Source of the DNA: Mycobacterium phage prophiFSAT01-1
DNA: 64,000 nt
Sequence record: BK061308.1
Reading direction: 5' to 3' (one strand)
The notes under the pieces are model-generated. The model was given only the letters and a program-made list of their open reading frames with translations. It was not told the origin of the DNA and did not search any database. Each line of letters begins with the position of its first letter. The first letter of the stretch is position 1. The position numbers and the translations under genes were made by a program. This document shows positions 1,018 through 23,036 of the stretch, in pieces.

Positions 1018-1781
1018 GCGCCGTCGACCAGTACATACCCGTAGCCGGGCTGCTGGAGCCACTGGGGCTGACCTGGAGTCATCAGACATCTCTCGCTGCG
1101 CTACTCGCGGCCAACGATGAGGGCAAAGATCTCGCAGCCTGGGACCGAATCGATCTCAAGGCGTATCAGATCGCAACTGCGGAGATGGAGATGGTCAGCA
1201 TCCTTCCGACCTTCGTCCACGACCAGCTCAAAGCGATCGCGGTTCCCGACCGAATCGTGTACTACCGCCACAACTTCTATCTGATGGGCATTGAGACGGG
1301 CGCGGAAGTTCATCGCTCGACGATCGCACTCATGGCGTTGGCCGCGCGAGGCAAGAGCTACGACCCCGCGGCTAAAAAACGCATCAAGGGTCTACCGATG
1401 GACATCGACCGCGGGCTGATCGTGCACATCCCCGAGGGTGCAAAGAAGGCCACCGTGCACTGGGTCAATCTGCTACGCGGATGGGGCGATGTGTCGCTGG
1501 CACACAGGCTCTCTGAGCTTCGCAAGCGCACTGTCAAGGACTACATCGCGCCCGTGCGGCGTCCCGACGACCGGCCCAAGAACGCTCAGGCTTACCGCCG
1601 TCGCGGCCAGTTCGACAACTTTTCCAACAGGACACGCAAGCGGTTCGACGTACTCGCAGCACGTGCGAAGGACATCGAAGAGCTGCGCGACGTGTACACG
1701 CGAGCGCACAAGAACATTGCGCTCACCCCCAGCTTCAAAGAGGCATGCAAACGACGGCTAGCGGAGCTGTCGGCCTCCTAG
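1014..1781 (+). CDS. Cas4/RecB-like nuclease paralog with a degenerate active site
   Basis: Paralog of ORF 4723..5652, sharing the VHWVNLLRGW and KRRLAEL C-terminal motifs. The RecB motif III 'IIDVKTG' is replaced by 'LMGIETG', so the catalytic D and K are lost. ATGA overlap with the upstream gene. Confidence 0.5.
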   Translation: MSAVDQYIPVAGLLEPLGLTWSHQTSLAALLAANDEGKDLAAWDRIDLKAYQIATAEMEMVSILPTFVHDQLKAIAVPDRIVYYRHNFYLMGIETGAEVHRSTIALMALAARGKSYDPAAKKRIKGLPMDIDRGLIVHIPEGAKKATVHWVNLLRGWGDVSLAHRLSELRKRTVKDYIAPVRRPDDRPKNAQAYRRRGQFDNFSNRTRKRFDVLAARAKDIEELRDVYTRAHKNIALTPSFKEACKRRLAELSAS

Positions 1782-1823
1782 AAGGGCATCACAACAACGA
1801 CACCAACGAATGGAAGGAATGAG

Positions 1824-1931
1824 ATGTCATCCAAGGAAACGACTTTCGGTGACTACGCGTCCTGGCTGATGTTAGCCATGACCGGGCCGATCGTCGCGGC
1901 GGCGTACCTGATCCGAGTGGGGGCGTTCTGA
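1824..1931 (+). CDS. small hydrophobic protein (35 aa)
   Basis: ATG preceded by GGAAGGAATGAG as ribosome-binding site. Stop overlaps the next start (ATGA). Below the ORF-track length cutoff. Confidence 0.3.
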   Translation: MSSKETTFGDYASWLMLAMTGPIVAAAYLIRVGAF

Positions 1932-2254
1932 TGGACACCAACTACCCGACGTACCCCAGCGGCACCATCGCGTACTGGGTATGCCCACGCAACGACAATC
2001 ATGTCTCGGTGCTGCTGCGCGACGCCAACGGCTGGAACCTATCCGGCGTCGCTGAGCATGGCAATTTCACCATGTTCATGGAGCCGCTGAAGTTGGGGCT
2101 TGCGCTGTTGACGGGTCATTCGATTCCGGTCATCAGCGACCAGGACTTCCACGAACTCCAGCAGGGACCCAAGCCGATGGTCGTGACCATCGTGCACATT
2201 CCCACCGCGCCGTTGGTCACCGACGAGGACGAAGAGGTGGCCGACCATGCGTGA
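1931..2254 (+). CDS. hypothetical protein (NDNH-motif domain)
   Basis: ORF is coupled to its neighbours and GC-rich at third codon positions. It shares a 'C-P-x-N-D-N-H' domain with the next gene. Confidence 0.45.
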   Translation: MDTNYPTYPSGTIAYWVCPRNDNHVSVLLRDANGWNLSGVAEHGNFTMFMEPLKLGLALLTGHSIPVISDQDFHELQQGPKPMVVTIVHIPTAPLVTDEDEEVADHA

Positions 2255-2795
2255 GTATCCCATGGGCTCAATGGTGTTCACCATCTGCCCGGACAACGAC
2301 AACCATGCAGTCTTCGGTCTGCGCGCCGAGGACGGCTGGTATCTCATGCAGGTCACCGAATCGAGCACGCTCAAGATCACCCAAGAGCCGTCCACCGACG
2401 AGGAGATAATGGGCGATCTGGATATGACGTGGATCGTCTGCCGTGACCCGTTGATGACGATCATCGGGCCGGACAAGACGAGGCCGGATGAGTGTCCCAG
2501 TGGCAGCATCATTTTCAGCCGCATGGAGGATCATCCGTTCGCGATCGTCGCTGGCTTGAAAACGCTGGACGGCTGGGAATTTGCACGTATCAACCCCGAC
2601 GGCAAGTTTGAGGCGATGGCGTTCATCCATCACCTACTGACTCACCACCTGGGGATGAACGTCGGACTACCGCAGGACAGCAACGTGTTTGGCAGTGAAG
2701 ACGTTGACCCGCGGTACGTGATCGGCGGTGACTGGACGATCGTCCACGTTCCTACGGTCGTCACCACCCCCGTATCGAAGGCGGCGGAGAACTGA
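2247..2795 (+). CDS. hypothetical protein (two copies of the NDNH-type domain)
   Basis: Paralogous to 1931..2254 (MVFTICPDNDNHAVFG vs IAYWVCPRNDNHVSVL), with a second degenerate copy at its C-terminus. Confidence 0.45.
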   Translation: MREYPMGSMVFTICPDNDNHAVFGLRAEDGWYLMQVTESSTLKITQEPSTDEEIMGDLDMTWIVCRDPLMTIIGPDKTRPDECPSGSIIFSRMEDHPFAIVAGLKTLDGWEFARINPDGKFEAMAFIHHLLTHHLGMNVGLPQDSNVFGSEDVDPRYVIGGDWTIVHVPTVVTTPVSKAAEN

Positions 2796-3322
2796 TGGAC
2801 CTGATCGTGGTGGACCTGGAGACCACAGGTCTTGACACCGATGTTCACTCGATCCTGGAGGTGGCGGCTGTCAATGTCGCCACCGGCCAGGAACTCTACT
2901 TCGTGCCCTACATCAAGCCTGATCAGATGATGATGGCCGACCCGGAAGCGCTGCGTATCAACAGGTATTACGAACGCGGTGTGTTCCGCAAGATGCTCAA
3001 GAGTCCCGACGACAACGTCCAAGCCTATCGCGAGCTGTTCGACATGCTGAAAGACAACAGGCTCGGCGGCGCTAACCCCCGTTTCGACGCCGACATGCTG
3101 GTCAAAGCAACTGGCTACGCGGAGTCTTGGCACTATCGGCTGGCCGATGTGTGCGCGTACGTCAGCGGCGCTCTGGGATTCGACCCTAGCGACATTCGCG
3201 GCCTGCATGACATGTGCGTATCGCTATCGGTGGACACCGGCACTGAGCACAGCGCCCTAGACGACGCCAGGGCGACCGCAGCATGCTTCCGGGCCGCCGC
3301 ACTGGGACCCCGGAGTCGATGA
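2795..3322 (+). CDS. DnaQ-like DEDDh 3'-5' exonuclease
   Basis: Exo I motif VVDLETTGLD, Exo II NPRFDADML and Exo III H-SALDDARATA motifs are present. Confidence 0.7.
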   Translation: MDLIVVDLETTGLDTDVHSILEVAAVNVATGQELYFVPYIKPDQMMMADPEALRINRYYERGVFRKMLKSPDDNVQAYRELFDMLKDNRLGGANPRFDADMLVKATGYAESWHYRLADVCAYVSGALGFDPSDIRGLHDMCVSLSVDTGTEHSALDDARATAACFRAAALGPRSR

Positions 3323-3735: not shown

Positions 3736-4451
3736 CACTCGCACTGGTCACCGACGACATGACGACAGGTGTTCTGAAAACAACTGATGGCGAGCGTAAC
3801 TCGCGCAAGAAGCTGTACTGGAAACGTCGGCGAGAAGCGCTATCGGGCGTCGCGCTGGAACGCTTGGCAGATCTTGGTATTGAGTTCCCGGTGGTCGCGG
3901 GAACCATGACTATCCCCGAGGTTTGCGACTACTTCGGAATCAGCCGTTCGACACTGACCAACATAGCCCGCCAGTACTACGAAGAGCTGATCGAGGTCGG
4001 TTACATGCCCGGCAGCGTGACACAGCCGACGCGGTACAGCGAGTTGGCGCTTGCGCATGTTGCGATGATCCTGCGACCCAGCACATCTGACCAGGCGATG
4101 ATCATCCAGAAGGCACTAGGCATCTACCGCGCACCTCGCGGAGCCGTCAAGGTCCACAACCAGAGTGGTGCTCACGTCAAGGTCTGCGGCCGCGTGCTCG
4201 ATGAGGCATACAAGCTGATCAGTGAGATTCGCGAGGATGACCCCGAAGAGGTTTGGAAGGCGCTGGAGAAACGCAATCGTCATGAGCTGCAAGTGCTCAC
4301 GGTGGCGTTGGCGGCGCTAGTGCCGAATGACCGCGGTGGACTGCGCGCTTGGCTGGCCGAAATCGGTCTGGGCATCCGCTCGGACGCTCAGAACAAGGCA
4401 GCGGTCGGGCTGGCCAGCTTGGTCCCGAGTCGTCAGCAGGTGTCTGAGTGA
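3732..4451 (+). CDS. hypothetical protein with predicted HTH (MTIPEVCDYFGISRSTLTNIARQY)
   Basis: ORF with ATGA coupling and a helix-turn-helix-like segment. Confidence 0.45.
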   Translation: MTLALVTDDMTTGVLKTTDGERNSRKKLYWKRRREALSGVALERLADLGIEFPVVAGTMTIPEVCDYFGISRSTLTNIARQYYEELIEVGYMPGSVTQPTRYSELALAHVAMILRPSTSDQAMIIQKALGIYRAPRGAVKVHNQSGAHVKVCGRVLDEAYKLISEIREDDPEEVWKALEKRNRHELQVLTVALAALVPNDRGGLRAWLAEIGLGIRSDAQNKAAVGLASLVPSRQQVSE

Positions 4452-8613: not shown

Positions 8614-8837
8614 GCGCCAAGACTATCCGTGCGCGTGAGATCGTCAATGAGGTCCGCAACGACGCCGCGAATGATGTCAAGAACTTCGACGGCCGTGAGC
8701 TGACTGGGCGACTGGTCGGCGAAATCAATGGCAACACAAACGGTCTCATCGTGGGTCTGGCCAATTGTATTGAGATGTTGGCGACCGAGATCGAGCGGCT
8801 TGAGAATCGGATGCCACCTCAACAGGGGTGGTGGTGA
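8607..8837 (+). CDS. hypothetical protein
   Basis: Overlapping, coupled ORF. Confidence 0.35.
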   Translation: MVSAKTIRAREIVNEVRNDAANDVKNFDGRELTGRLVGEINGNTNGLIVGLANCIEMLATEIERLENRMPPQQGWW

Positions 8838-9544
8838 TGTTCACCTACTCCACCTGCGTTACGTGCAACACGATCATGATCGTTACAGACCATGACCAGC
8901 GTCAGCACCCGGAGTGCGCAGAGAACGCGCCAGCGCCAACGCTGACGCGCGTGGAGCTGCTGACCGAGGAGTTACGCGCCGCACTCATTGCTGGCGACCA
9001 GTCTGTGTTCGATTCCAAGTTGGCTGAGCTGAATGTGATAGATGATCAGCCGCCACCGCTGGGCCCTTCGGCGCTGTTTTATGCCACAGAATATGGCTGG
9101 CCCGTGTTTCCGTTGGAGGTTGGGGGTAAGCGACCAGCTGTCCCGAAGAAGGATGGTGGCAACGGGTTCAAGGACGCGACGACCGATCCAGAGCGCATCA
9201 AGAAGTTCTGGACCAAGCACCCACTTTGCAACATCGGCATACCGACCGGCATCCATTTCGACGTGATCGATGTGGATGTGCCTGATGGATGGCTGTCGCT
9301 GCGCGACATGCTGAATGAGGATCGAGTGCCCGACATTCATGGTCGCGTGGCGACCTCATCTGGTGGTGTTCACCTTCTGATCGAACCCACCGGCGATGGC
9401 AACTCGGCCCGTATCGCGCCAGGTATCGACTACCGCGGCACGGGCGGTTATGTCGTGGCGCCACCCTCACGAATAGACCCCCAGCACCGCTGGTCGTGGA
9501 CGGTCAAGCCGTCACCGAAAGTAAAAGGGAGAGAGAAACAATGA
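8828..9544 (+). CDS. bifunctional DNA primase/polymerase (PrimPol) domain protein
   Basis: Prim-Pol N-terminal signature FYATEYGWPVFPL...GGKRPAV...GFKDATTDPERIKKFW...NIGIPTGIHFDVIDVD. Confidence 0.65.
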   Translation: MVVMFTYSTCVTCNTIMIVTDHDQRQHPECAENAPAPTLTRVELLTEELRAALIAGDQSVFDSKLAELNVIDDQPPPLGPSALFYATEYGWPVFPLEVGGKRPAVPKKDGGNGFKDATTDPERIKKFWTKHPLCNIGIPTGIHFDVIDVDVPDGWLSLRDMLNEDRVPDIHGRVATSSGGVHLLIEPTGDGNSARIAPGIDYRGTGGYVVAPPSRIDPQHRWSWTVKPSPKVKGREKQ

Positions 9545-14270: not shown

Positions 14271-15914
14271 GTGACGGCGATGAGTGACGAAAACAATGAC
14301 GAGACGGTAACGGAACCGCCCGAAGACAATGGCGGCCAAGTCATCTCATTCAAAGAACGCATGCGCGGATTCCGCGGAAGCGACGCCGAACCGCCACCGG
14401 CACCGCGGCGCGCGACGCCTGTCGAATTCATCGGTGACGATCGCTACGGCCGCGCGGCGATGGAAAAGGAGCTGGCGATCTTGGCCGCGACACCCGAGGG
14501 TGCGCGCAACCAGCAGCTCAACACGTCCTCATTCAGCCTCGCGGGTCTGGTGCGCGCCGGGAGGATCGACGAACAGACGGCCATCAACAACCTGGTGAGC
14601 ACAGCGCGGGCTATCGGCCTAGCTGAGAGCGAGATCATGCCGACGATCCGGTCGGCGTTCCGCGGCAGTGACGCCAAAGTCGGCGCGCGGCAGGTGCCCG
14701 AGCGCGAGGAGATACCGGCCGCGTTCACGATCGACCCGAATGACCCGAGTGACACGGCTGACCCTGCTGATGCGTCGGATGTCGCGGCGGCCGAGATCAG
14801 CGACGACGAGGCAGAGCGACTACTGGCGCACCGTAGACGCGTCCAGCAGTCCGCATACGACCTCCGCGTGTCAGACGAAGGCCGAGCGCTCTACGCGGCC
14901 CAGCAGGCGCATGAGCTAGGCCAAACCGCGCCAGATCCGGTGTCGCTGACCGACTTCTTGAGCATTCCCGACGAGGACGCTGTCTATCGCATCGGTGAGC
15001 TACTGCCGGTCGGTGGCCGCGCGCTACTGGCGGCCCAGTACAAGGCCGGCAAGACGACGATGATGGCCAACCTGCTGCGCTCGCTGGCCGATGGTGTGTC
15101 ATTCCTCGGGAAGTTCACGACGACTCAGGTTGAGCGGGTCACGGTGATCGATACCGAGCTAGATGAGCGCATGTTTCGCAGATGGTTACGCGCGCAGGGC
15201 ATTCAGAACACCGAACGTGTGCAGGTGCTCCCGATGAAGGGTCATCTTGCGACGTTCAACATCATCGACCCGAGCACCCGTGCATCCTGGGCGGCCAAGC
15301 TACATGGGTCGGATTTCATCATTCTGGACTGCCTACGGCCCTGTCTGGACGCCCTCGGGCTCTCCGAGGACAAGGACGCCGGTAAGTACCTGGTCGCCTG
15401 GGATGCGTTCGTGGCCGAGACTGGGGCCGACGAGTCGATCGTGGTCCATCACATGGGCCACAGCGCCGAGCGCAGCCGCGGCGATTCCCGGCTGCTCGAT
15501 TGGCCGGATGTGCTCTGGAAAATCGTGCGGGAGCAGGCCGAGGAGGGGGAGGACCCGGCAGCCGATGGGGGTAAGCGGTTCTTCTCGGCGCACGGTCGAG
15601 ACGTGGCAGTGGCCGAAGGTTTGCTGGAGTACCTGCCGGAGACTGGCGGGTTGCTACTGCATGAGGGTGGCCGAGCGGCAACGAAAGCGCGCGACGGGCT
15701 GCCGCTGGTGGTGCAGATTCTCTCTGATCCCGAGTTCATCGGCGGCCTTGGCATGCGAGCGCTGACCGCCAAACTGGGCGAGAGCGGTGTCGGTTTCCAT
15801 GCCGCGCGCAAGATCATCAAGACCGCAATCGAGGAGTCCGTCATTCTCGTCGGTGAGGGTGCCCGTAACGCCAAGGTCATGACATTAAACCCATCTGCGG
15901 CGAGGTGGTCATGA
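14271..15914 (+). CDS. DNA primase/helicase (PriCT-like N-terminal domain plus RepA/DnaB-like P-loop ATPase)
   Basis: N-terminal AAMEKELAILAATPEGARNQQLNTSSFSLAGLVRAG (PriCT-like) and Walker A AAQYKAGKTTMMANLL. Confidence 0.65.
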   Translation: MTAMSDENNDETVTEPPEDNGGQVISFKERMRGFRGSDAEPPPAPRRATPVEFIGDDRYGRAAMEKELAILAATPEGARNQQLNTSSFSLAGLVRAGRIDEQTAINNLVSTARAIGLAESEIMPTIRSAFRGSDAKVGARQVPEREEIPAAFTIDPNDPSDTADPADASDVAAAEISDDEAERLLAHRRRVQQSAYDLRVSDEGRALYAAQQAHELGQTAPDPVSLTDFLSIPDEDAVYRIGELLPVGGRALLAAQYKAGKTTMMANLLRSLADGVSFLGKFTTTQVERVTVIDTELDERMFRRWLRAQGIQNTERVQVLPMKGHLATFNIIDPSTRASWAAKLHGSDFIILDCLRPCLDALGLSEDKDAGKYLVAWDAFVAETGADESIVVHHMGHSAERSRGDSRLLDWPDVLWKIVREQAEEGEDPAADGGKRFFSAHGRDVAVAEGLLEYLPETGGLLLHEGGRAATKARDGLPLVVQILSDPEFIGGLGMRALTAKLGESGVGFHAARKIIKTAIEESVILVGEGARNAKVMTLNPSAARWS

Positions 15915-16252
15915 CGCTGCGCAGATGCTTCGACTGTTTCAGTGTTTCAGCCAGTGAAACAGTCGAGTTGAAACAGTCAGCACGGTGTGTGACTGGCGAC
16001 TGTTTCAGAAACCCTAAAGGGTTTCTGAACACAGGTCGCGAAACAGTCACCCCGTTCACCGTATGGCTGACCGGCTCGAAACAGTGGATGAAACCCATCC
16101 GCGACGTGTTGGGTGGTCTCGCGTTCACGTTGGGTGGCCTCGTCGTGGCATCCACATCAAGCGCTGGGACATCAATCATCAACCGACGTGTGATTGAGCG
16201 TCGGGAGTCGAAACAACGCTCCAGGGAGGTTCTGGGATGTCTCACGCAGTGA
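15905..16252 (+). CDS. possible small ORF overlapping an iteron-like repeat array (coding status uncertain)
   Basis: ATGA-coupled to the primase stop, but the 5' 150 nt are AT-enriched and packed with GAAACAGTC repeats. Confidence 0.25.
   Translation: MVMTLRRCFDCFSVSASETVELKQSARCVTGDCFRNPKGFLNTGRETVTPFTVWLTGSKQWMKPIRDVLGGLAFTLGGLVVASTSSAGTSIINRRVIERRESKQRSREVLGCLTQ
15931..16090. repeat. iteron-like array: about 7 copies of GAAACAGTC / GACTGTTTC plus the palindrome CAGAAACCC-TAAA-GGGTTTCTG
   Basis: Repeats read directly from the sequence in both orientations. The array lies immediately downstream of the primase/helicase gene. Confidence 0.5.
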
Positions 16253-16704
16253 ACCTGTCGCCAGGTGGCGGACTACCCCCGCCGTTCGTGTCCTTGTTCG
16301 TGCCGGGTAAGGCAGCGCCCCAAGGGTCCAAACGTCACGTAGGCCGCGGCGTGCTGGTGGAAAGCTCCAAGGACCTCAAGCCGTGGCGGTCTGAGGTCGC
16401 ATACTTCGCTCAGCGAGCGATGTCCGGTCGGCCTATCTACACCCAGACACCGTTAGCTGTCGAACTCGGTTTCGTCATGCCGCGGCCAACATCGGCGCCC
16501 AAAACCAAAACGCCTCCGGCCATCAAACGGCCCGACACCGACAAACTGGAGCGGGCCATTCTGGATGCTCTGACGCATGTCGTCTATGACGACGATTCGG
16601 TGATCATCGATCTGCACGGGCGAAAACGAATCGCCGAGATAGGCGAGACGCCCGGCGTATCCATCTTCGTCACCCCGGTGGACGAGGCGGGCTGGAAATG
16701 GTAG
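16237..16704 (+). CDS. RusA-like Holliday junction resolvase
   Basis: GKAAPQGSKRH motif and RPDTDKLERAILDALT motif. Confidence 0.7.
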   Translation: MSHAVNLSPGGGLPPPFVSLFVPGKAAPQGSKRHVGRGVLVESSKDLKPWRSEVAYFAQRAMSGRPIYTQTPLAVELGFVMPRPTSAPKTKTPPAIKRPDTDKLERAILDALTHVVYDDDSVIIDLHGRKRIAEIGETPGVSIFVTPVDEAGWKW

Positions 16705-16833
16705 GCGTGACGTTTGGGGCGCTCCAGCCCGGTCAGTGTGCGCTCTGCGGCAAGGGTTACTCACTGGGTGCGCGAGTGACGTACCGCAGCCACGACGAAG
16801 AGCCAGTGCATGTCATCTGTGCGGAGCTGGCCG

Positions 16834-17088
16834 ATGCCGAGTAGAGAATTCGAGGCGGCCTACGAGGGTCACTGTTTCGACTGCGGCGAGATTATCGCAG
16901 TCGGTCAGCACGTCGTCTATGACGATGACGGCGATCTGGTGCATGCCGGGTGTTACAACGACCCAACGTCCTTCGACCCCAGCGGCGATGACGAGGTGCG
17001 CCCCGTCAAGTTTGTCGAGGTTAAAGAGCGCGCCGACCGAAAACCCTGCGAGTCCTGCCATCTAGTCCATGCCGGTGAGTGTTTCTGA
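16834..17088 (+). CDS. small Cys-rich protein
   Basis: CFDCGE...HAGC...CESCH pattern, coupled to neighbours. Confidence 0.35.
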   Translation: MPSREFEAAYEGHCFDCGEIIAVGQHVVYDDDGDLVHAGCYNDPTSFDPSGDDEVRPVKFVEVKERADRKPCESCHLVHAGECF

Positions 17089-17453
17089 TGACCGATCAAG
17101 ACGTACTGGAGGCCCTGGAGTTCACACCCGATCACGGGCCTTGTGAGTGCGTCAAATGCGGGCTGAACGAAGACCAGCCTGAGCACGAGGGTAGGTGCGG
17201 TAAGCCAGCCAAGTATCGCGCCGAGATGCACATGATCGACAAGTGCAACCAGCCGGGGCTTACCCCAAATGGCGGGACGATCTTCTTCGTCTGTGAGCGC
17301 TGCATGCTGATCGGCGAGCGCGTCGCGGCGCGGATAGCTGCCGCCAATCAACGGCTGATCAAGGAACGCGACTTCGTGATGATGTGCACCACATGTCAAC
17401 GGCCACTCAATGATCCACACAACATCATGGAGGTTGAACCACTCGATGAGTGA
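17088..17453 (+). CDS. small Cys-rich protein
   Basis: Multiple CxxC pairs (CECVKCG, CERCM, CTTCQ). Confidence 0.35.
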   Translation: MTDQDVLEALEFTPDHGPCECVKCGLNEDQPEHEGRCGKPAKYRAEMHMIDKCNQPGLTPNGGTIFFVCERCMLIGERVAARIAAANQRLIKERDFVMMCTTCQRPLNDPHNIMEVEPLDE

Positions 17454-18357
17454 GATACGCCGATGCAGGGCTGGCCGACTGTGCGACGGCTACGAAGTAG
17501 TCGCCGGGCAGCGTCGTGCCGCCGAAGTGAACGGCGACGCTCATCTATGCGAGGCGTGCCAGCTCAAGACGCGAAAACTGATCCGCCGCATGCCCAATGA
17601 CTGGTGCAAGCTGAAACTGACGATCGGGGAGAAGCGAGCGCGCGGCCAGACCGAGGAAATCAGCCGCAGACCCAAACCCGGATCAAAGGTACTGATCAAC
17701 GTGGACACCGCCGAGCTGATGAGCGAGATCGTCGATGTCTGCGATCGCTCTACACGGCTGGCACTAGGCAGGGGTGAGCGCAAGCGCTCCCGTGGTGACG
17801 TGGTGATCGGACAGTCATCGGCCGACAGATACGACTTCCAGGTGGTGCTCAAAGCCGTTGACGTGGTGACAAAGAACATCGACGTGCTGGCGTCCTCGCA
17901 AGAGGGAACCATGTTGGCTCTCAAGGTGTTCGACCTCGGCTATCGCGTCCGCCGACATCTCGGCGAGACACTGTACCGAGAGAAGCAACACCTACCCTGC
18001 CCCGTGTGCGGCGAGCTAGCGCTAGTCAAGGAGGTGCAGGACAAACGTCAAAGCGTCAGCTCAGCCAACCAAGAGGAGATCACGCCAGAGGTCATCCGCT
18101 GCCTGGCGTGCAACGGTGGGCCCAACCAGGACGGCACATGGACGGAGGCTGAGTATAAGTGGCTCCAGTCGATGGTTCTCACAGATCAGGAGGAGCACGA
18201 GATGCTGAAATGGCTACTTGCGGAGGCGGAATGGCAGCGCGACGTATGCGCCTGGCTGGCCGCCGAACGGCAGTGGTACCTAGAGCTGGCGTGCGCCACC
18301 ACCGGCATGCCGTGGGGACACTTCCTGACCGCGCTGGAGGGTACGGCCGACCGATGA
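17446..18357 (+). CDS. hypothetical protein with Zn-finger-like cysteines
   Basis: CEAC, CPVCG and CLACNG motifs. Confidence 0.45.
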   Translation: MSEIRRCRAGRLCDGYEVVAGQRRAAEVNGDAHLCEACQLKTRKLIRRMPNDWCKLKLTIGEKRARGQTEEISRRPKPGSKVLINVDTAELMSEIVDVCDRSTRLALGRGERKRSRGDVVIGQSSADRYDFQVVLKAVDVVTKNIDVLASSQEGTMLALKVFDLGYRVRRHLGETLYREKQHLPCPVCGELALVKEVQDKRQSVSSANQEEITPEVIRCLACNGGPNQDGTWTEAEYKWLQSMVLTDQEEHEMLKWLLAEAEWQRDVCAWLAAERQWYLELACATTGMPWGHFLTALEGTADR

Positions 18358-22331: not shown

Positions 22332-22547
22332 CCCACGCGGGCATCGGAGGCTGGGGAGGGGAACCCCCTGGGGCCCCGGAAATCCCCGGTTGGCATAGGC
22401 GCTGGGGCTCCGCCTGGGTCTGGGCCTTTTCGACCCCAGCTGAAAACATGCAGAAAAACCGCAGTTCAGGCACTGTTTCGTGAGTGTTTCAGTGCCAGCC
22501 CTGACCGAAACGGTCGCGCGAAACGCGCACAGAAAGAGCAGGCACAC
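22332..22547. other. putative cos/packaging-initiation region between HNH and TerS
   Basis: Non-coding 215 bp, GC-rich with hairpins. Two further copies of the GTTTCAG/CGAAAC motif (22471-22530). Confidence 0.3.
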
Positions 22548-23036
22548 ATGGCTGGAATAGGCCCGCGTCCCAAGGACCCGGATCGGCTCGCAGGACACGG
22601 CGCGCGCCGCGGTCGCGACAACATAATGCGCATCATCCCCGCTAAGCCTGTTGAACAGCCTCCGCTACCGCAGTTCGACCTTGAGGTCAGCGTTGACGGT
22701 CAGATAGTCGCCCAACAGTTCAAGTGGCCCGCGCGGACGGTCGAGTGGTGGCAGATGTGGAAGGAATCGCCGCTGTCGAAGGAGTTCACTTCGACGGACT
22801 GGTCAGAACTGCTTGATACCGCGGTGCTGCACGCCCGGTACTGGACTGGCGACGTGAAAGTGGCCGCCGAACTGCGGTTGCGCGTTGCCAAATTCGGCGC
22901 GACACCGGAAGACCGCGCTCGTCTGCGTATTCAGTTCGCCGCGGCCAATGAGGCCGACAAGAGGGCTATCCAGCCGAGCGGGAAGTCCGATGGCGGGTCC
23001 AAAGGGCGGTACGGGCCGCTGGGGTCGACGGGCTAA
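22548..23036 (+). CDS. terminase small subunit
   Basis: N-terminal MAGIGPRPKDPDRLAGHGARRG, typical of actinophage TerS, immediately upstream of TerL. Confidence 0.65.
   Translation: MAGIGPRPKDPDRLAGHGARRGRDNIMRIIPAKPVEQPPLPQFDLEVSVDGQIVAQQFKWPARTVEWWQMWKESPLSKEFTSTDWSELLDTAVLHARYWTGDVKVAAELRLRVAKFGATPEDRARLRIQFAAANEADKRAIQPSGKSDGGSKGRYGPLGSTG

Follow-up and report, generated by a model that had tools for sequence, protein, structure and literature searches.

What is the array of short repeats that lies directly behind the helicase gene of this MabR prophage? The repeats could be a replication origin, and they could also be operator sites, an element that acts in RNA, another kind of cis-acting site, or the by-product of an open reading frame (ORF) that overlaps them. 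We have analyzed these possibilities in a window of 64 kb (the whole stretch of prophage DNA under study, 64,000 nucleotides), which belongs to cluster MabR and has ~96% identity to McProf. The genes considered are the following.

8828 to 9544, plus strand: bifunctional primase/polymerase (Prim-Pol) gene (Pfam PF09250, E 1.6e-33)
14271 to 15914, plus strand: helicase gene, 547 aa, candidate initiator (Pfam AAA_25, E 4e-21)
15911 to 16252, plus strand: 113-aa ORF over the array, equivalent of McProf gp36, with its ATG at 15911
16237 to 16704, plus strand: RusA Holliday-junction resolvase gene (Pfam RusA, E 1e-16)

The Prim-Pol gene is found on the same strand as the helicase gene, 4.7 kb upstream of it. 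The terS gene starts at 22548, and the cos region is located beside HNH and terS, 6.5 kb from the array. Several HTH proteins are also encoded in the prophage. GC skew across the window gave no origin signal.

The repeat array and its central palindrome

The array is composed of these elements.

15929 to 15967: left inverted repeat, made up of iteron 1 (15932 to 15940, minus strand), TGTTTCAG (15943 to 15950), and iteron 2 (15956 to 15964, plus strand)
15970 to 15978, plus strand: iteron 3, GAAACAGTC
15974 to 16073: extended imperfect dyad of 100 bp, with its center at 16016/16017
15998 to 16006, minus strand: iteron 4, GAAACAGTC, abutting the central palindrome
16004 to 16029: central perfect palindrome TTCAGAAACCCT-AA-AGGGTTTCTGAA, 12+2+12 nt, with a TAAA core
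16040 to 16048, plus strand: iteron 5, GAAACAGTC
16078 to 16086, plus strand: iteron 6, GAAACAGTG, one mismatch

Five exact copies of GAAACAGTC or its complement start at 15932 (minus), 15956 (plus), 15970 (plus), 15998 (minus), and 16040 (plus), and with the one-mismatch copy GAAACAGTG at 16078 (plus) the six copies span 155 bp (15932 to 16086). The degenerate copy TGTTTCAG brings the total to about seven, the number given in the initial annotation, and a count of the motif over the whole element revealed no exact GAAACAGTC outside the array in the 64 kb. The most frequent 8-mer occurs six times here, compared with at most four times in every other 300-bp stretch of the window. Iterons are 9 to 10 bp long, inverted as well as direct, and irregularly spaced (24, 14, 28, 42, and 38 bp), with no helical phasing. 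A CRISPR array, defined by direct repeats of 24 to 48 bp, regular spacing, and unique spacers, had already been discounted and is ruled out by the 9-bp repeats, their two orientations, and the irregular spacing of 14 to 42 bp.

The array had been described as starting right at the stop of the preceding gene; it does lie directly downstream, with the first repeat beginning 18 nt past the helicase TGA (15912 to 15914). The AT enrichment noted there is also seen, as local GC is 50 to 54% at the array versus 60 to 67% in the flanks. The perfect palindrome that had been reported, CAGAAACCC-TAAA-GGGTTTCTG, is present and GC clamped, and it extends outward to 16004 to 16029. Its AT-rich core is only ~4 bp (TAAA), iterons in both orientations are found on either side of the center, and we regard it as a candidate melting or loading site. 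The left inverted repeat has arms of 15 nt that are 93% complementary, and nearly all of its columns are invariant in five MabR genomes. The array as a whole lies between the copies of a 25-nt direct repeat.

The helicase and the arrays behind its homologs

The protein encoded just before the array had been labeled a primase with a PriCT domain, but no primase or PriCT domain was detected in it with Pfam; it is a helicase only (AAA_25), and Prim-Pol is encoded separately. Its AF2 model (pLDDT 85.6) consists of an N-terminal helical bundle, a RepA-like RecA-fold ATPase core, and a C-terminal winged-helix domain (residues ~468 to 544). A sequence search against solved structures gave no useful match, while the fold search gave RSF1010 RepA as the best solved structure (1olo/1g8y; Foldseek E 4e-10, target-normalised TM 0.66 to 0.69), with KaiC, DnaB, and RecA, all of them RecA-fold, as the other top structures. 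The N- and C-terminal domains matched no family in Pfam or NCBIfam. When modeled, the C-terminal domain (residues 468 to 544) has the order H-H-H-H-strand-strand and matches winged-helix DNA-binding domains only (ArsR, MarR, Zur/Fur, and ORC2 WHD), the leading matches having TM 0.5 to 0.63, prob 0.99 to 1.0, and E 0.02 to 0.1, with none below 0.02. Judging from the predicted fold, it is a plausible DNA-binding domain of winged-helix-like type. The putative recognition-helix region varies between lineages with different iterons. In phages that have an iteron in common, conservation of the C-terminal domain does not exceed that of the remaining protein (71% versus 78% in FSQJ01), and therefore nothing links the iterons specifically to that domain.

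In ~16 lineages of helicase homologs (34 to 57% identity), which include actinobacterial prophages and PICI-like satellites, analogous arrays directly follow the helicase coding sequence or occupy its end. These arrays consist of repeats of 8 to 12 bp in both orientations, with a sequence specific to each lineage (CGGGAAACTG in the M. fortuitum relative, GTGGCACAGTG, CAGTGTGCC, CAGTGCGCC, CCAGTTCGTCAG, CCGCGCGGTC, AACCKTTCGG, AGGGAGGT, GGTGGGGC, and others), and in most of them the repeats are grouped around a palindrome with GC clamps and a core of TATATA, TTAAA, or TTTA. Three distant homologs (L008, L014, and L024) have no array nearby, and in L013 the array is 2.3 kb away from the helicase homolog. 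The genes 3' of the arrays vary (RusA, other nucleases, and capsid genes), and upstream of the helicase no conserved small partner protein, which might have been the real iteron binder, was found, the upstream ORFs not being homologous. This leaves the helicase as the one constant neighbor of the array. The homologous loci L026, L027, L030, and L031 are PICI-like satellites. A Prim-Pol gene immediately precedes that of the helicase homolog in L028 and L029, and some homologs are Prim-Pol/helicase fusions; Prim-Pol is likely the priming partner of the replication module.

Related copies had also been reported before terS, where we find the following.

22471 to 22515: second, weaker cluster just upstream of terS, with GAAACAGTG (minus), GAAACACTC (minus), and GAAACGGTC (plus)

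These copies, at 22471, 22482, and 22507, have one mismatch each, and three one-mismatch copies within 45 bp are reached in ~0.1% of shuffles (P about 0.001). The cluster looks real. It is kept in FSIL01, FVLQ01, and FSQJ01, with an exact GACTGTTTC in two of these three, and is absent from McProf, though the main array is kept there. This cluster could reflect a transcriptional regulator instead, and the same might be asked of the array as a whole, whose repeats would then be operator sites for a regulator or other non-helicase protein that controls RusA and the early genes and, through the terS cluster, the late operon. The position of the conserved sites at the start of the late operon would suit such a role, as would an inverted-repeat layout appropriate for dimeric regulators and the presence of HTH proteins encoded in the element. 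However, the promoter scan found no promoter-like site at either cluster, McProf retains the array without the terS cluster, no other neighboring protein is conserved, and the array follows the helicase in ~16 lineages whatever gene is downstream, minimal PICI-like elements included, with a repeat that changes from lineage to lineage. We consider this explanation unlikely. A terminator scan at the two clusters gave hairpins at chance level only.

Conservation of the dyad and the overlapping reading frame

In the five MabR genomes, 51 of the 54 iteron columns are invariant, versus 118 of the 247 other columns of the same ORF (Fisher p = 2e-11), and the spacers between iterons diverge while the repeats stay nearly invariant. 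The offsets of the iterons from the helicase stop are kept among the MabR relatives, with iteron 3 at +56 to +59 in all of them; in FSQJ01, iteron 5 has one mismatch and iteron 6 is exact. By an exact 19-mer search of viral contigs, MabR-like arrays were recovered in the four known relatives only. Six metagenome matches to the 19-mers belong to unrelated low-GC contigs and are not MabR-like arrays.

In the extended dyad, the pairing partner of iteron 4 is a degenerate copy at 16028 to 16038 and that of iteron 5 a half-copy at ~15988 to 15994, and as single-strand DNA the dyad is predicted to fold with -45.6 kcal/mol (z = -7.4). Ten of its pairs are changed on both sides with pairing kept among the five genomes, a number reached by none of 500 shuffles, and slid controls give 0 to 6. 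Palindromy is kept in FSQJ01 by two compensatory pair changes and in FVLQ01 by a different sequence. From the sequence comparison, we can conclude that the dyad is under selection and held by compensatory changes. Its pairs are almost all Watson-Crick, with hardly any G-U, which fits a symmetry at the DNA level.

A dyad of this kind could also act in RNA, either as hairpins of the early mRNA involved in processing, stability, or translational coupling between helicase and RusA or as a small RNA. The strength of the predicted hairpins and the compensatory changes are compatible with this, the region is transcribed within the operon, and the conserved ATGA overlap at the start of the ORF suggests ribosome read-through. 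Nevertheless, pairing that is nearly all Watson-Crick is what a symmetry of double-stranded DNA would produce, and the short repeats that lie outside the hairpins show the same degree of conservation and have both orientations. In other lineages, the arrays consist mainly of short tandem and inverted repeats instead of a single fold that is conserved. No Rfam family matches either, the scan of 15700 to 16400 giving only a chance miRNA match (21 bits versus a gathering score of 100), and a role in RNA seems very unlikely to us.

We also see little chance that the array is another cis site, such as a centromere resembling parS, a site for packaging or recombination, or a remnant duplication with no function. 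Centromere and packaging sites also have short repeats in both orientations, related copies are found near terS and the cos region, and the direct repeat flanking the array could be read in the same sense, but the gene to which the array is linked is that of the helicase, not one for terminase or partition. No partition gene turned up among McProf genes 18 to 50 or the neighboring ORFs scanned with Pfam, a pac or cos site at the array is rejected by the distance of 6.5 kb to cos, HNH, and terS, and the strong purifying selection on the repeats and dyad argues against a remnant.

The last explanation takes gp36 for a functional protein, with the DNA repeats as a by-product of its repeated peptide motifs (DCF.., ETV, and KQS), and this we regard as extremely improbable, even though the ORF is annotated in public records, stays free of interruption in each of the five MabR genomes although they have indels that shift the frame, and has an ATG that overlaps the helicase stop (ATGA), an overlap conserved in many lineages. 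The ORF, measured as 113 aa from the ATG and not the 115 aa first given, lacks the third-position bias of a coding gene, with substitutions by codon position of 32:42:39 versus 89:68:226 in the helicase and 32:23:84 in RusA. Its dN/dS is 0.44 to 0.65 against the three more divergent relatives, even with the invariant repeats counted, and 0.16 against the near-identical McProf, while the flanking genes have values of 0.04 to 0.20. Protein identity is 40 to 48% at a DNA identity of 67 to 79%, and FVLQ01 carries internal frameshifts. Those blocks of the peptide that are conserved map exactly onto the iterons, the ribosome-binding site of RusA (GGGAGG, 16222 to 16227), and the RusA start codon, and the latter two are unchanged in 5/5 MabR genomes. 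Homologs form two clusters only among 5.8 billion proteins, both from MabR; Pfam, PHROG, and NCBIfam gave no match, and the equivalent region in other lineages is intergenic or read in other ways. Conservation of this ORF as a protein, with the repeats at synonymous sites only, had been named beforehand as the outcome that would speak against an origin, and the pattern of codon positions and the MabR-only homologs do not show such conservation.

On these comparisons, the repeats are conserved as DNA and not as protein, and the ORF is probably a translated spacer or an annotation artifact rather than a protein under selection. As the frame remains open despite indels and the ATGA overlap is conserved, translation through the element is likely, which leaves room for a role at the level of the peptide or RNA.

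A candidate origin and its relation to known systems

We therefore return to replication, and we think it fairly probable that the array (~15929 to 16090) is the lytic, iteron-type replication origin of the MabR prophage, in which TGAAACAGTC occurs six to seven times, on either strand, around a dyad of 100 bp with the GC-clamped palindrome and its TAAA core at the center. The proposal of an origin, or of sites for an initiator or regulator, made in the initial annotation gains support from the DNA conservation, the compensated dyad, and the analogous arrays. The neighboring helicase probably binds this origin as its initiator; this binding, melting of the core, and the start of replication at the array are what we infer. 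Upon induction, the early operon would make Prim-Pol and helicase, and the winged-helix domain of the latter would recognize the iterons. Helicase rings, facing opposite ways, would then assemble on either side of the dyad and open the core at its center, which hairpin or cruciform extrusion may aid, and Prim-Pol would prime, with extension by a host polymerase. Transcription and translation from the helicase gene would pass through the element by way of a short spacer ORF, with no selection on the peptide sequence.

The layout resembles that of SaPI/PICI origins, which are immediately 3' of rep, have opposite-orientation iterons flanking an AT-rich center, and are read by the C-terminal winged-helix domain of Rep (PMC9371898, PMC6092414). 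The likeness extends to the position of the candidate origin directly 3' of the helicase gene, the same in ~16 lineages, to the C-terminal winged-helix domain, which is here predicted (AF2; matches with E 0.02 to 0.1), and to a primase gene upstream and an element-specific iteron sequence. The short iterons in both orientations on either side of the center may correspond to the 6 to 12 iterons that SaPI/PICI origins have in two opposite sets, but the AT-rich part here is no more than a TAAA core in a stretch of 50% GC, with TATATA or TTAAA cores in other lineages. In contrast, SaPI Reps are AAA+ (MCM/SF3-like) and the helicase here is RecA-fold, RepA/DnaB-like, the iterons are 9 to 10 bp instead of 5 to 6 bp, the AT core of only 4 to 8 bp is enclosed in a long GC-rich dyad with compensatory changes, and the array belongs to a full-size 65-kb temperate actinobacterial phage. 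The module of array and helicase is an analog of the SaPI/PICI type and not a member by descent.

The IncQ plasmid RSF1010 has a RepA helicase, a RepB' primase, a RepC initiator, and an oriV with iterons and ssi hairpins. Its RepA is the closest structural relative of the helicase core, and both systems combine iterons, hairpin-forming palindromes, and a dedicated primase. However, in RSF1010 the iterons are 20-bp direct repeats bound by a separate protein, RepC, and RepA lacks a winged-helix tail, while the repeats here are 9 to 10 bp and inverted as well as direct, and no initiator-like family was found among the neighboring ORFs scanned by domain families. The alpha protein of the satellite phage P4 is a fusion of primase and SF3 helicase with a C-terminal winged helix that binds short repeats, placed in two separated clusters, ori and crr (cis replication region). 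The terS-upstream cluster could be an analog of crr, although it is degenerate and absent from McProf.

The minimal replicon of pRN1 comprises ~166 bp directly downstream of the primase-helicase (ORF904) gene, with a stem-loop (PMC4234260). It resembles the MabR locus in having its origin 3' of the replicase gene and in Prim-Pol-based replication (ORF904 being prim-pol/helicase/winged-helix) (PMC4234260). It differs in that it is an archaeal plasmid with an SF3 helicase and no iteron array. The SV40 core origin with large T antigen and the HSV oriS with UL9 are dyad-symmetric origins that load double hexamers. They share with the array the inverted elements around an AT-centered palindrome and a helicase as initiator, by analogy only, as these eukaryotic viral proteins are unrelated.

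More tentatively, and with some doubt, RepA-like (RecA-fold, SF4-type) helicases with a C-terminal winged helix might constitute a previously unrecognized class of self-loading initiator-helicases that is widespread among temperate phages of actinobacteria and PICI-like satellites. Each member would then read its own iterons in a dyad-symmetric origin right after its gene, in convergence with the SaPI AAA+ Rep/ori. The cos/terS cluster of MabR might then be a distant cis element, similar to the crr of P4, or a link between replication and packaging.

To our knowledge, hardly any lytic replication origin has been mapped in an actinobacteriophage. The element is not mentioned in the description of MabR (PMC9434293) or in the survey of Mycobacterium prophages (PMC10654092). 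The array is the first candidate origin for the MabR group, an element of a familiar kind that is currently annotated as a gene, and the "hypothetical protein" annotated over it in MabR genomes is probably no functional protein. The helicase, Prim-Pol, and ~170 bp of DNA could make a compact replicon for vectors of M. abscessus and M. chelonae, and the differing pairs of iteron and winged helix provide a natural series for studying how specificity is encoded. If our reading is true, origins could be found right after the AAA_25 helicase gene in prophages of Mycobacterium, Mycolicibacterium, and other actinobacteria and in PICI-like satellites, and another helicase superfamily would be seen to use an origin laid out as in SaPIs, a case of convergence.

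The repeat array and its gene context

The window is a Mycobacteroides chelonae/abscessus group prophage, whose region 14271-17500 shows 95.8% identity to the cluster MabR relative McProf and 77-90% to three further MabR prophages (FSIL01, FVLQ01, and FSQJ01). The genes relevant to the array are as follows:

8828-9544, Prim-Pol gene (Pfam PF09250)
14271-15914, helicase gene, 547 aa (Pfam AAA_25 only)
15911-16252, 113-aa ORF containing the whole array, its ATG overlapping the helicase stop as ATGA; annotated "hypothetical protein" (e.g., McProf gp36)
16237-16704, RusA resolvase gene (Pfam RusA)

A motif search of the entire 64 kb located GAAACAGTC or its complement at 15932(-), 15956(+), 15970(+), 15998(-), and 16040(+), with no further exact copy elsewhere, together with a one-mismatch copy, GAAACAGTG, at 16078(+) and a degenerate copy, TGTTTCAG, at 15943-15950, between the first and second exact ones. 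The array in both orientations described in the initial annotation is thus present, with a consensus, including flanks, of TGAAACAGTC. The perfect palindrome noticed among the repeats proved longer than first noted, 12+2+12 nt at 16004-16029 (TTCAGAAACCCT-AA-AGGGTTTCTGAA), and the local AT enrichment also held, GC being 50-54% across the array and 60-67% in the flanks. The top 8-mer occurs six times in the array, versus at most four in any other 300-bp stretch of the window. The label "primase/helicase" (PriCT) was not confirmed, as Pfam and NCBIfam detected neither a primase nor a PriCT family in the helicase.

The array is flanked by a 25-nt direct repeat (80% identity between the copies) at 15884-15908 and 16088-16112. 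Its first copy encodes the conserved terminal LNPS of the helicase; the repeat could be due to chance or reflect the way in which the array came about. One-mismatch GAAACAGTG also occurs at 16870-16878(-), ca. 956 nt past the helicase stop, and in the corresponding position in each of the five MabR genomes, although this conservation may be incidental, since the site is within a coding region. The most likely RusA start codon is ATG 16237, with GGGAGG upstream at 16222-16227. Neither varies among the five genomes; the MabR records place the start at a GTG overlapping the gp36 stop (window 16249).

Conservation of the array as DNA

In the alignment of the five MabR genomes, 51 of the 54 iteron columns are invariant, compared with 118 of 247 in the rest of the ORF (Fisher p = 2e-11), the spacers diverge, and each iteron keeps the same distance from the helicase stop in every genome. 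Counted against the most distant relative, substitutions at codon positions 1, 2, and 3 number 89, 68, and 226 in the helicase and 32, 23, and 84 in RusA, versus 32, 42, and 39 in the gp36 ORF. Its dN/dS comes to 0.16 with the near-identical McProf and to 0.44-0.65 with the three relatives that diverge more, compared with 0.04-0.20 for the flanking genes, and protein identity is 40-48% at a DNA identity of 67-79%. FVLQ01 carries compensating frameshifts within the ORF. Where the peptide is conserved, the blocks fall on the iterons or, at the C terminus, on the ribosome-binding site of RusA (GGGAGG, 16222-16227) and its ATG 16237. No match to the ORF was found in Pfam, PHROG, or NCBIfam, and its homologues form only two clusters among 5.8 billion proteins, both from MabR, whereas the helicase has more than 740. 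The possibility raised at the outset, that the ORF is conserved as a protein with the repeats at synonymous sites only, is not borne out by these data, because the iterons are nearly invariant and the ORF shows no third-position bias, a dN/dS above that of the flanking genes against the three more divergent relatives, and MabR-only homologues. By these comparisons, the repeats are conserved as DNA and not as protein.

Folded as single-stranded DNA, 15925-16095 reaches -45.6 kcal/mol (z = -7.4 versus shuffles), with a left hairpin formed by iterons 1 and 2 (15929-15967) and an imperfect 100-bp dyad (15974-16073) centered on the palindrome. Ten dyad pairs are changed on both sides with pairing kept in the five genomes, a number reached by 0 of 500 shuffles (slid controls, 0-6). 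The FSQJ01 palindrome reads CAAGAACCC/GGGTTCTTG, and that of FVLQ01 has an inner part of other sequence but retains palindromy. This compensation is suggestive rather than conclusive, as it comes from only about three independent lineages. Since the pairs are nearly all Watson-Crick, with few G-U, a DNA-level symmetry (a protein-binding dyad or a cruciform) seems to fit better than an RNA fold.

Arrays and helicases in distant relatives

We examined loci coding for helicase homologues at 34-57% identity (numbered with the prefix L), drawn from species genomes, viral contigs, and assemblies. All those with a full-length helicase alignment, except L013 and L031, contain an 8-mer repeated 4-8 times in the 300-350 bp past the stop. 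Except in L028, where a count of 4 ties with the background maximum, no other stretch of the locus reaches that count. Each lineage has a motif of its own, as listed below.

Repeats found downstream of distant helicase homologues
L025, M. fortuitum: CGGGAAACTG
L006, Mycobacteriaceae MAG: GTGGCACAGTG
L026, M. abscessus element: CAGTGTGCC
L027, M. abscessus element: CAGTGCGCC
L007, Mycobacterium sp. M23085: CCAGTTCGTCAG
L005, M. litorale: CCGCGCGGTC
L028, Mycolicibacterium sp. F2034L: GCACGGTCG
L029, ENA metagenome contig: ACTGGGCC
L030, Logan assembly contig: GGTGGGGC
L023, IMG/VR viral contig: AACCKTTCGG
L012, Halostreptopolyspora alba: AGGGAGGT
L009, L010, L011, more distant loci: similar arrays

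The repeats of these loci lie in both orientations, and most arrays hold a palindrome that is GC-clamped around a short AT core (CGCG-TATATA-ACGCG, GCCC-TTAAA-GGGGC, CCCC-TTTA-GGGG), the counterpart in the window being CCC-TAAA-GGG. In L013, the array lies 2.3 kb from the helicase; in L031, a satellite-like element, seven copies of GAGTGCGCC lie at 2991-3108, within the 3' end of the helicase gene (1501-3168), where they encode its nonconserved C-terminal tail. No array was found near the distant homologues of L008, L014, and L024. Among the loci are several PICI-like satellites, in which the helicase is accompanied by a capsid gene and an integrase or a serine recombinase, in agreement with the candidate mycobacterial PICIs already described (PMC10654092). 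As the downstream genes differ by locus (RusA, another nuclease, endonuclease VII, or capsid genes) and the small ORFs upstream of the helicases showed no mutual homology across loci, the helicase is, in the loci compared, the only constant partner of the array.

In L006, an AT-rich ORF (5439 to ca. 5670), probably a recent insertion, separates the helicase stop from the array, shifting the latter ca. 230 bp downstream. L011 has, besides its downstream array, three tandem copies of its own repeat, GGTCTCAC, just upstream of the helicase region (3903-3924), which may be an autoregulatory site. Unrelated low-GC metagenome contigs (L036, L038, and L040), retrieved by a chance 19-mer match, contain dense TGAAAC-type repeat arrays in both orientations.

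In nine or more of the lineages checked, the helicase stop is part of an ATGA (window 15911-15914; L003, L004, L005, L007, L025, L026, L027, L028, and L031), the preceding codon ending in a rare A. The ORFs starting there (43-205 aa) are unrelated in sequence and read into the array, ending near the next gene in some loci and within the array in others, while in L005 the ORF continues in frame into the downstream nuclease gene. Ribosomes therefore probably continue into the array, perhaps as a means of translational coupling, with no selection on the resulting peptide.

In the AlphaFold model of the helicase (pLDDT 85.6), four parts can be distinguished. An N-terminal bundle of four helices (residues 58-136) is followed by a disordered linker and a RecA-fold core, for which the closest solved structure is the RSF1010 replicative helicase RepA; the fourth part is a C-terminal domain (residues 468-544; helix-helix-helix-helix-strand-strand). 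Modeled by itself (pLDDT 84.8), the latter matched only winged-helix DNA-binding domains (among them ArsR, MarR, Zur/Fur, ORC2 WHD, and SSV1 F-93; TM 0.5-0.63 and probability 0.99-1.0 for the leading ones), an assignment that relies on the uniformity of these neighbors, as none has an E value below 0.02. The putative recognition-helix region is near-identical among phages with TGAAACAGTC and differs in lineages with other iterons, a pattern compatible with iteron reading, though not proof of it. The L007, L026, and L027 helicases have an additional CxxC...HxxC tail past this domain that looks like a zinc ribbon.

A candidate origin of replication

SaPI/PICI origins lie directly 3' of the rep gene and contain 6-12 iterons in opposite orientations with an AT-rich center; a self-loading helicase recognizes these origins through its C-terminal winged-helix domain, and a primase gene lies upstream (PMC9371898, PMC6092414). 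Similarly, pRN1 requires 166 bp directly downstream of its primase-helicase gene (PMC4234260). Because the array resembles these experimentally defined systems in anatomy and position, we propose that it is the lytic origin of replication: the helicase C-terminal domain would bind the iterons, helicase rings would form to either side of the dyad and melt its TAAA core, and Prim-Pol would do the priming. The comparisons and models show the anatomy, how it is conserved, how it covaries with the lineage of the helicase, and the folds of the domains, whereas the steps of binding, melting, and initiation are inferred from them. We consider it likely that the array is an origin or an initiator-binding array; we are less confident that the helicase itself is the iteron binder, for which we see roughly even chances. 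SaPI Reps are AAA+ proteins, whereas the helicase here is RecA-fold and RepA-like and not homologous to them, so the element would be an analogue of the PICI/SaPI origin, not a member of the family. RSF1010 has the same helicase type, but its system relies on a distinct initiator and on long direct iterons.

Alternatively, the sites could serve a regulator, which we regard as unlikely. The chief observation sustaining this is the group of related copies reported upstream of terS, which we recovered at 22471-22515, just ahead of the gene (22548), as three one-mismatch copies, GAAACAGTG(-), GAAACACTC(-), and GAAACGGTC(+); three in 45 bp are found in ca. 0.1% of shuffles. Their layout is similar to the left unit of the array, and they are kept in FSIL01, FVLQ01, and FSQJ01 (with exact GACTGTTTC in two of the three), while McProf has other sequence there. 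This second cluster may act at a distance in cis, as P4 crr does, regulate the late operon, or form a link to packaging. The cos region is probably the adjacent 22340-22450, a G-rich and strongly conserved intergenic stretch that separates an HNH endonuclease gene from terS; the McProf equivalent has a different arrangement, with a reverse-strand gene cassette.

The element is mentioned neither in the MabR paper (PMC9434293) nor in the Mycobacterium prophage survey (PMC10654092), and the origins described for extrachromosomal mycobacterial prophages are other systems, RepA dependent and RNA based (PMC7157519). Judged by its conservation, the array is a solid cis element of an ordinary kind, of use in annotating genomes and in building vectors. 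It possibly hints at an unrecognized class of initiator-helicases.
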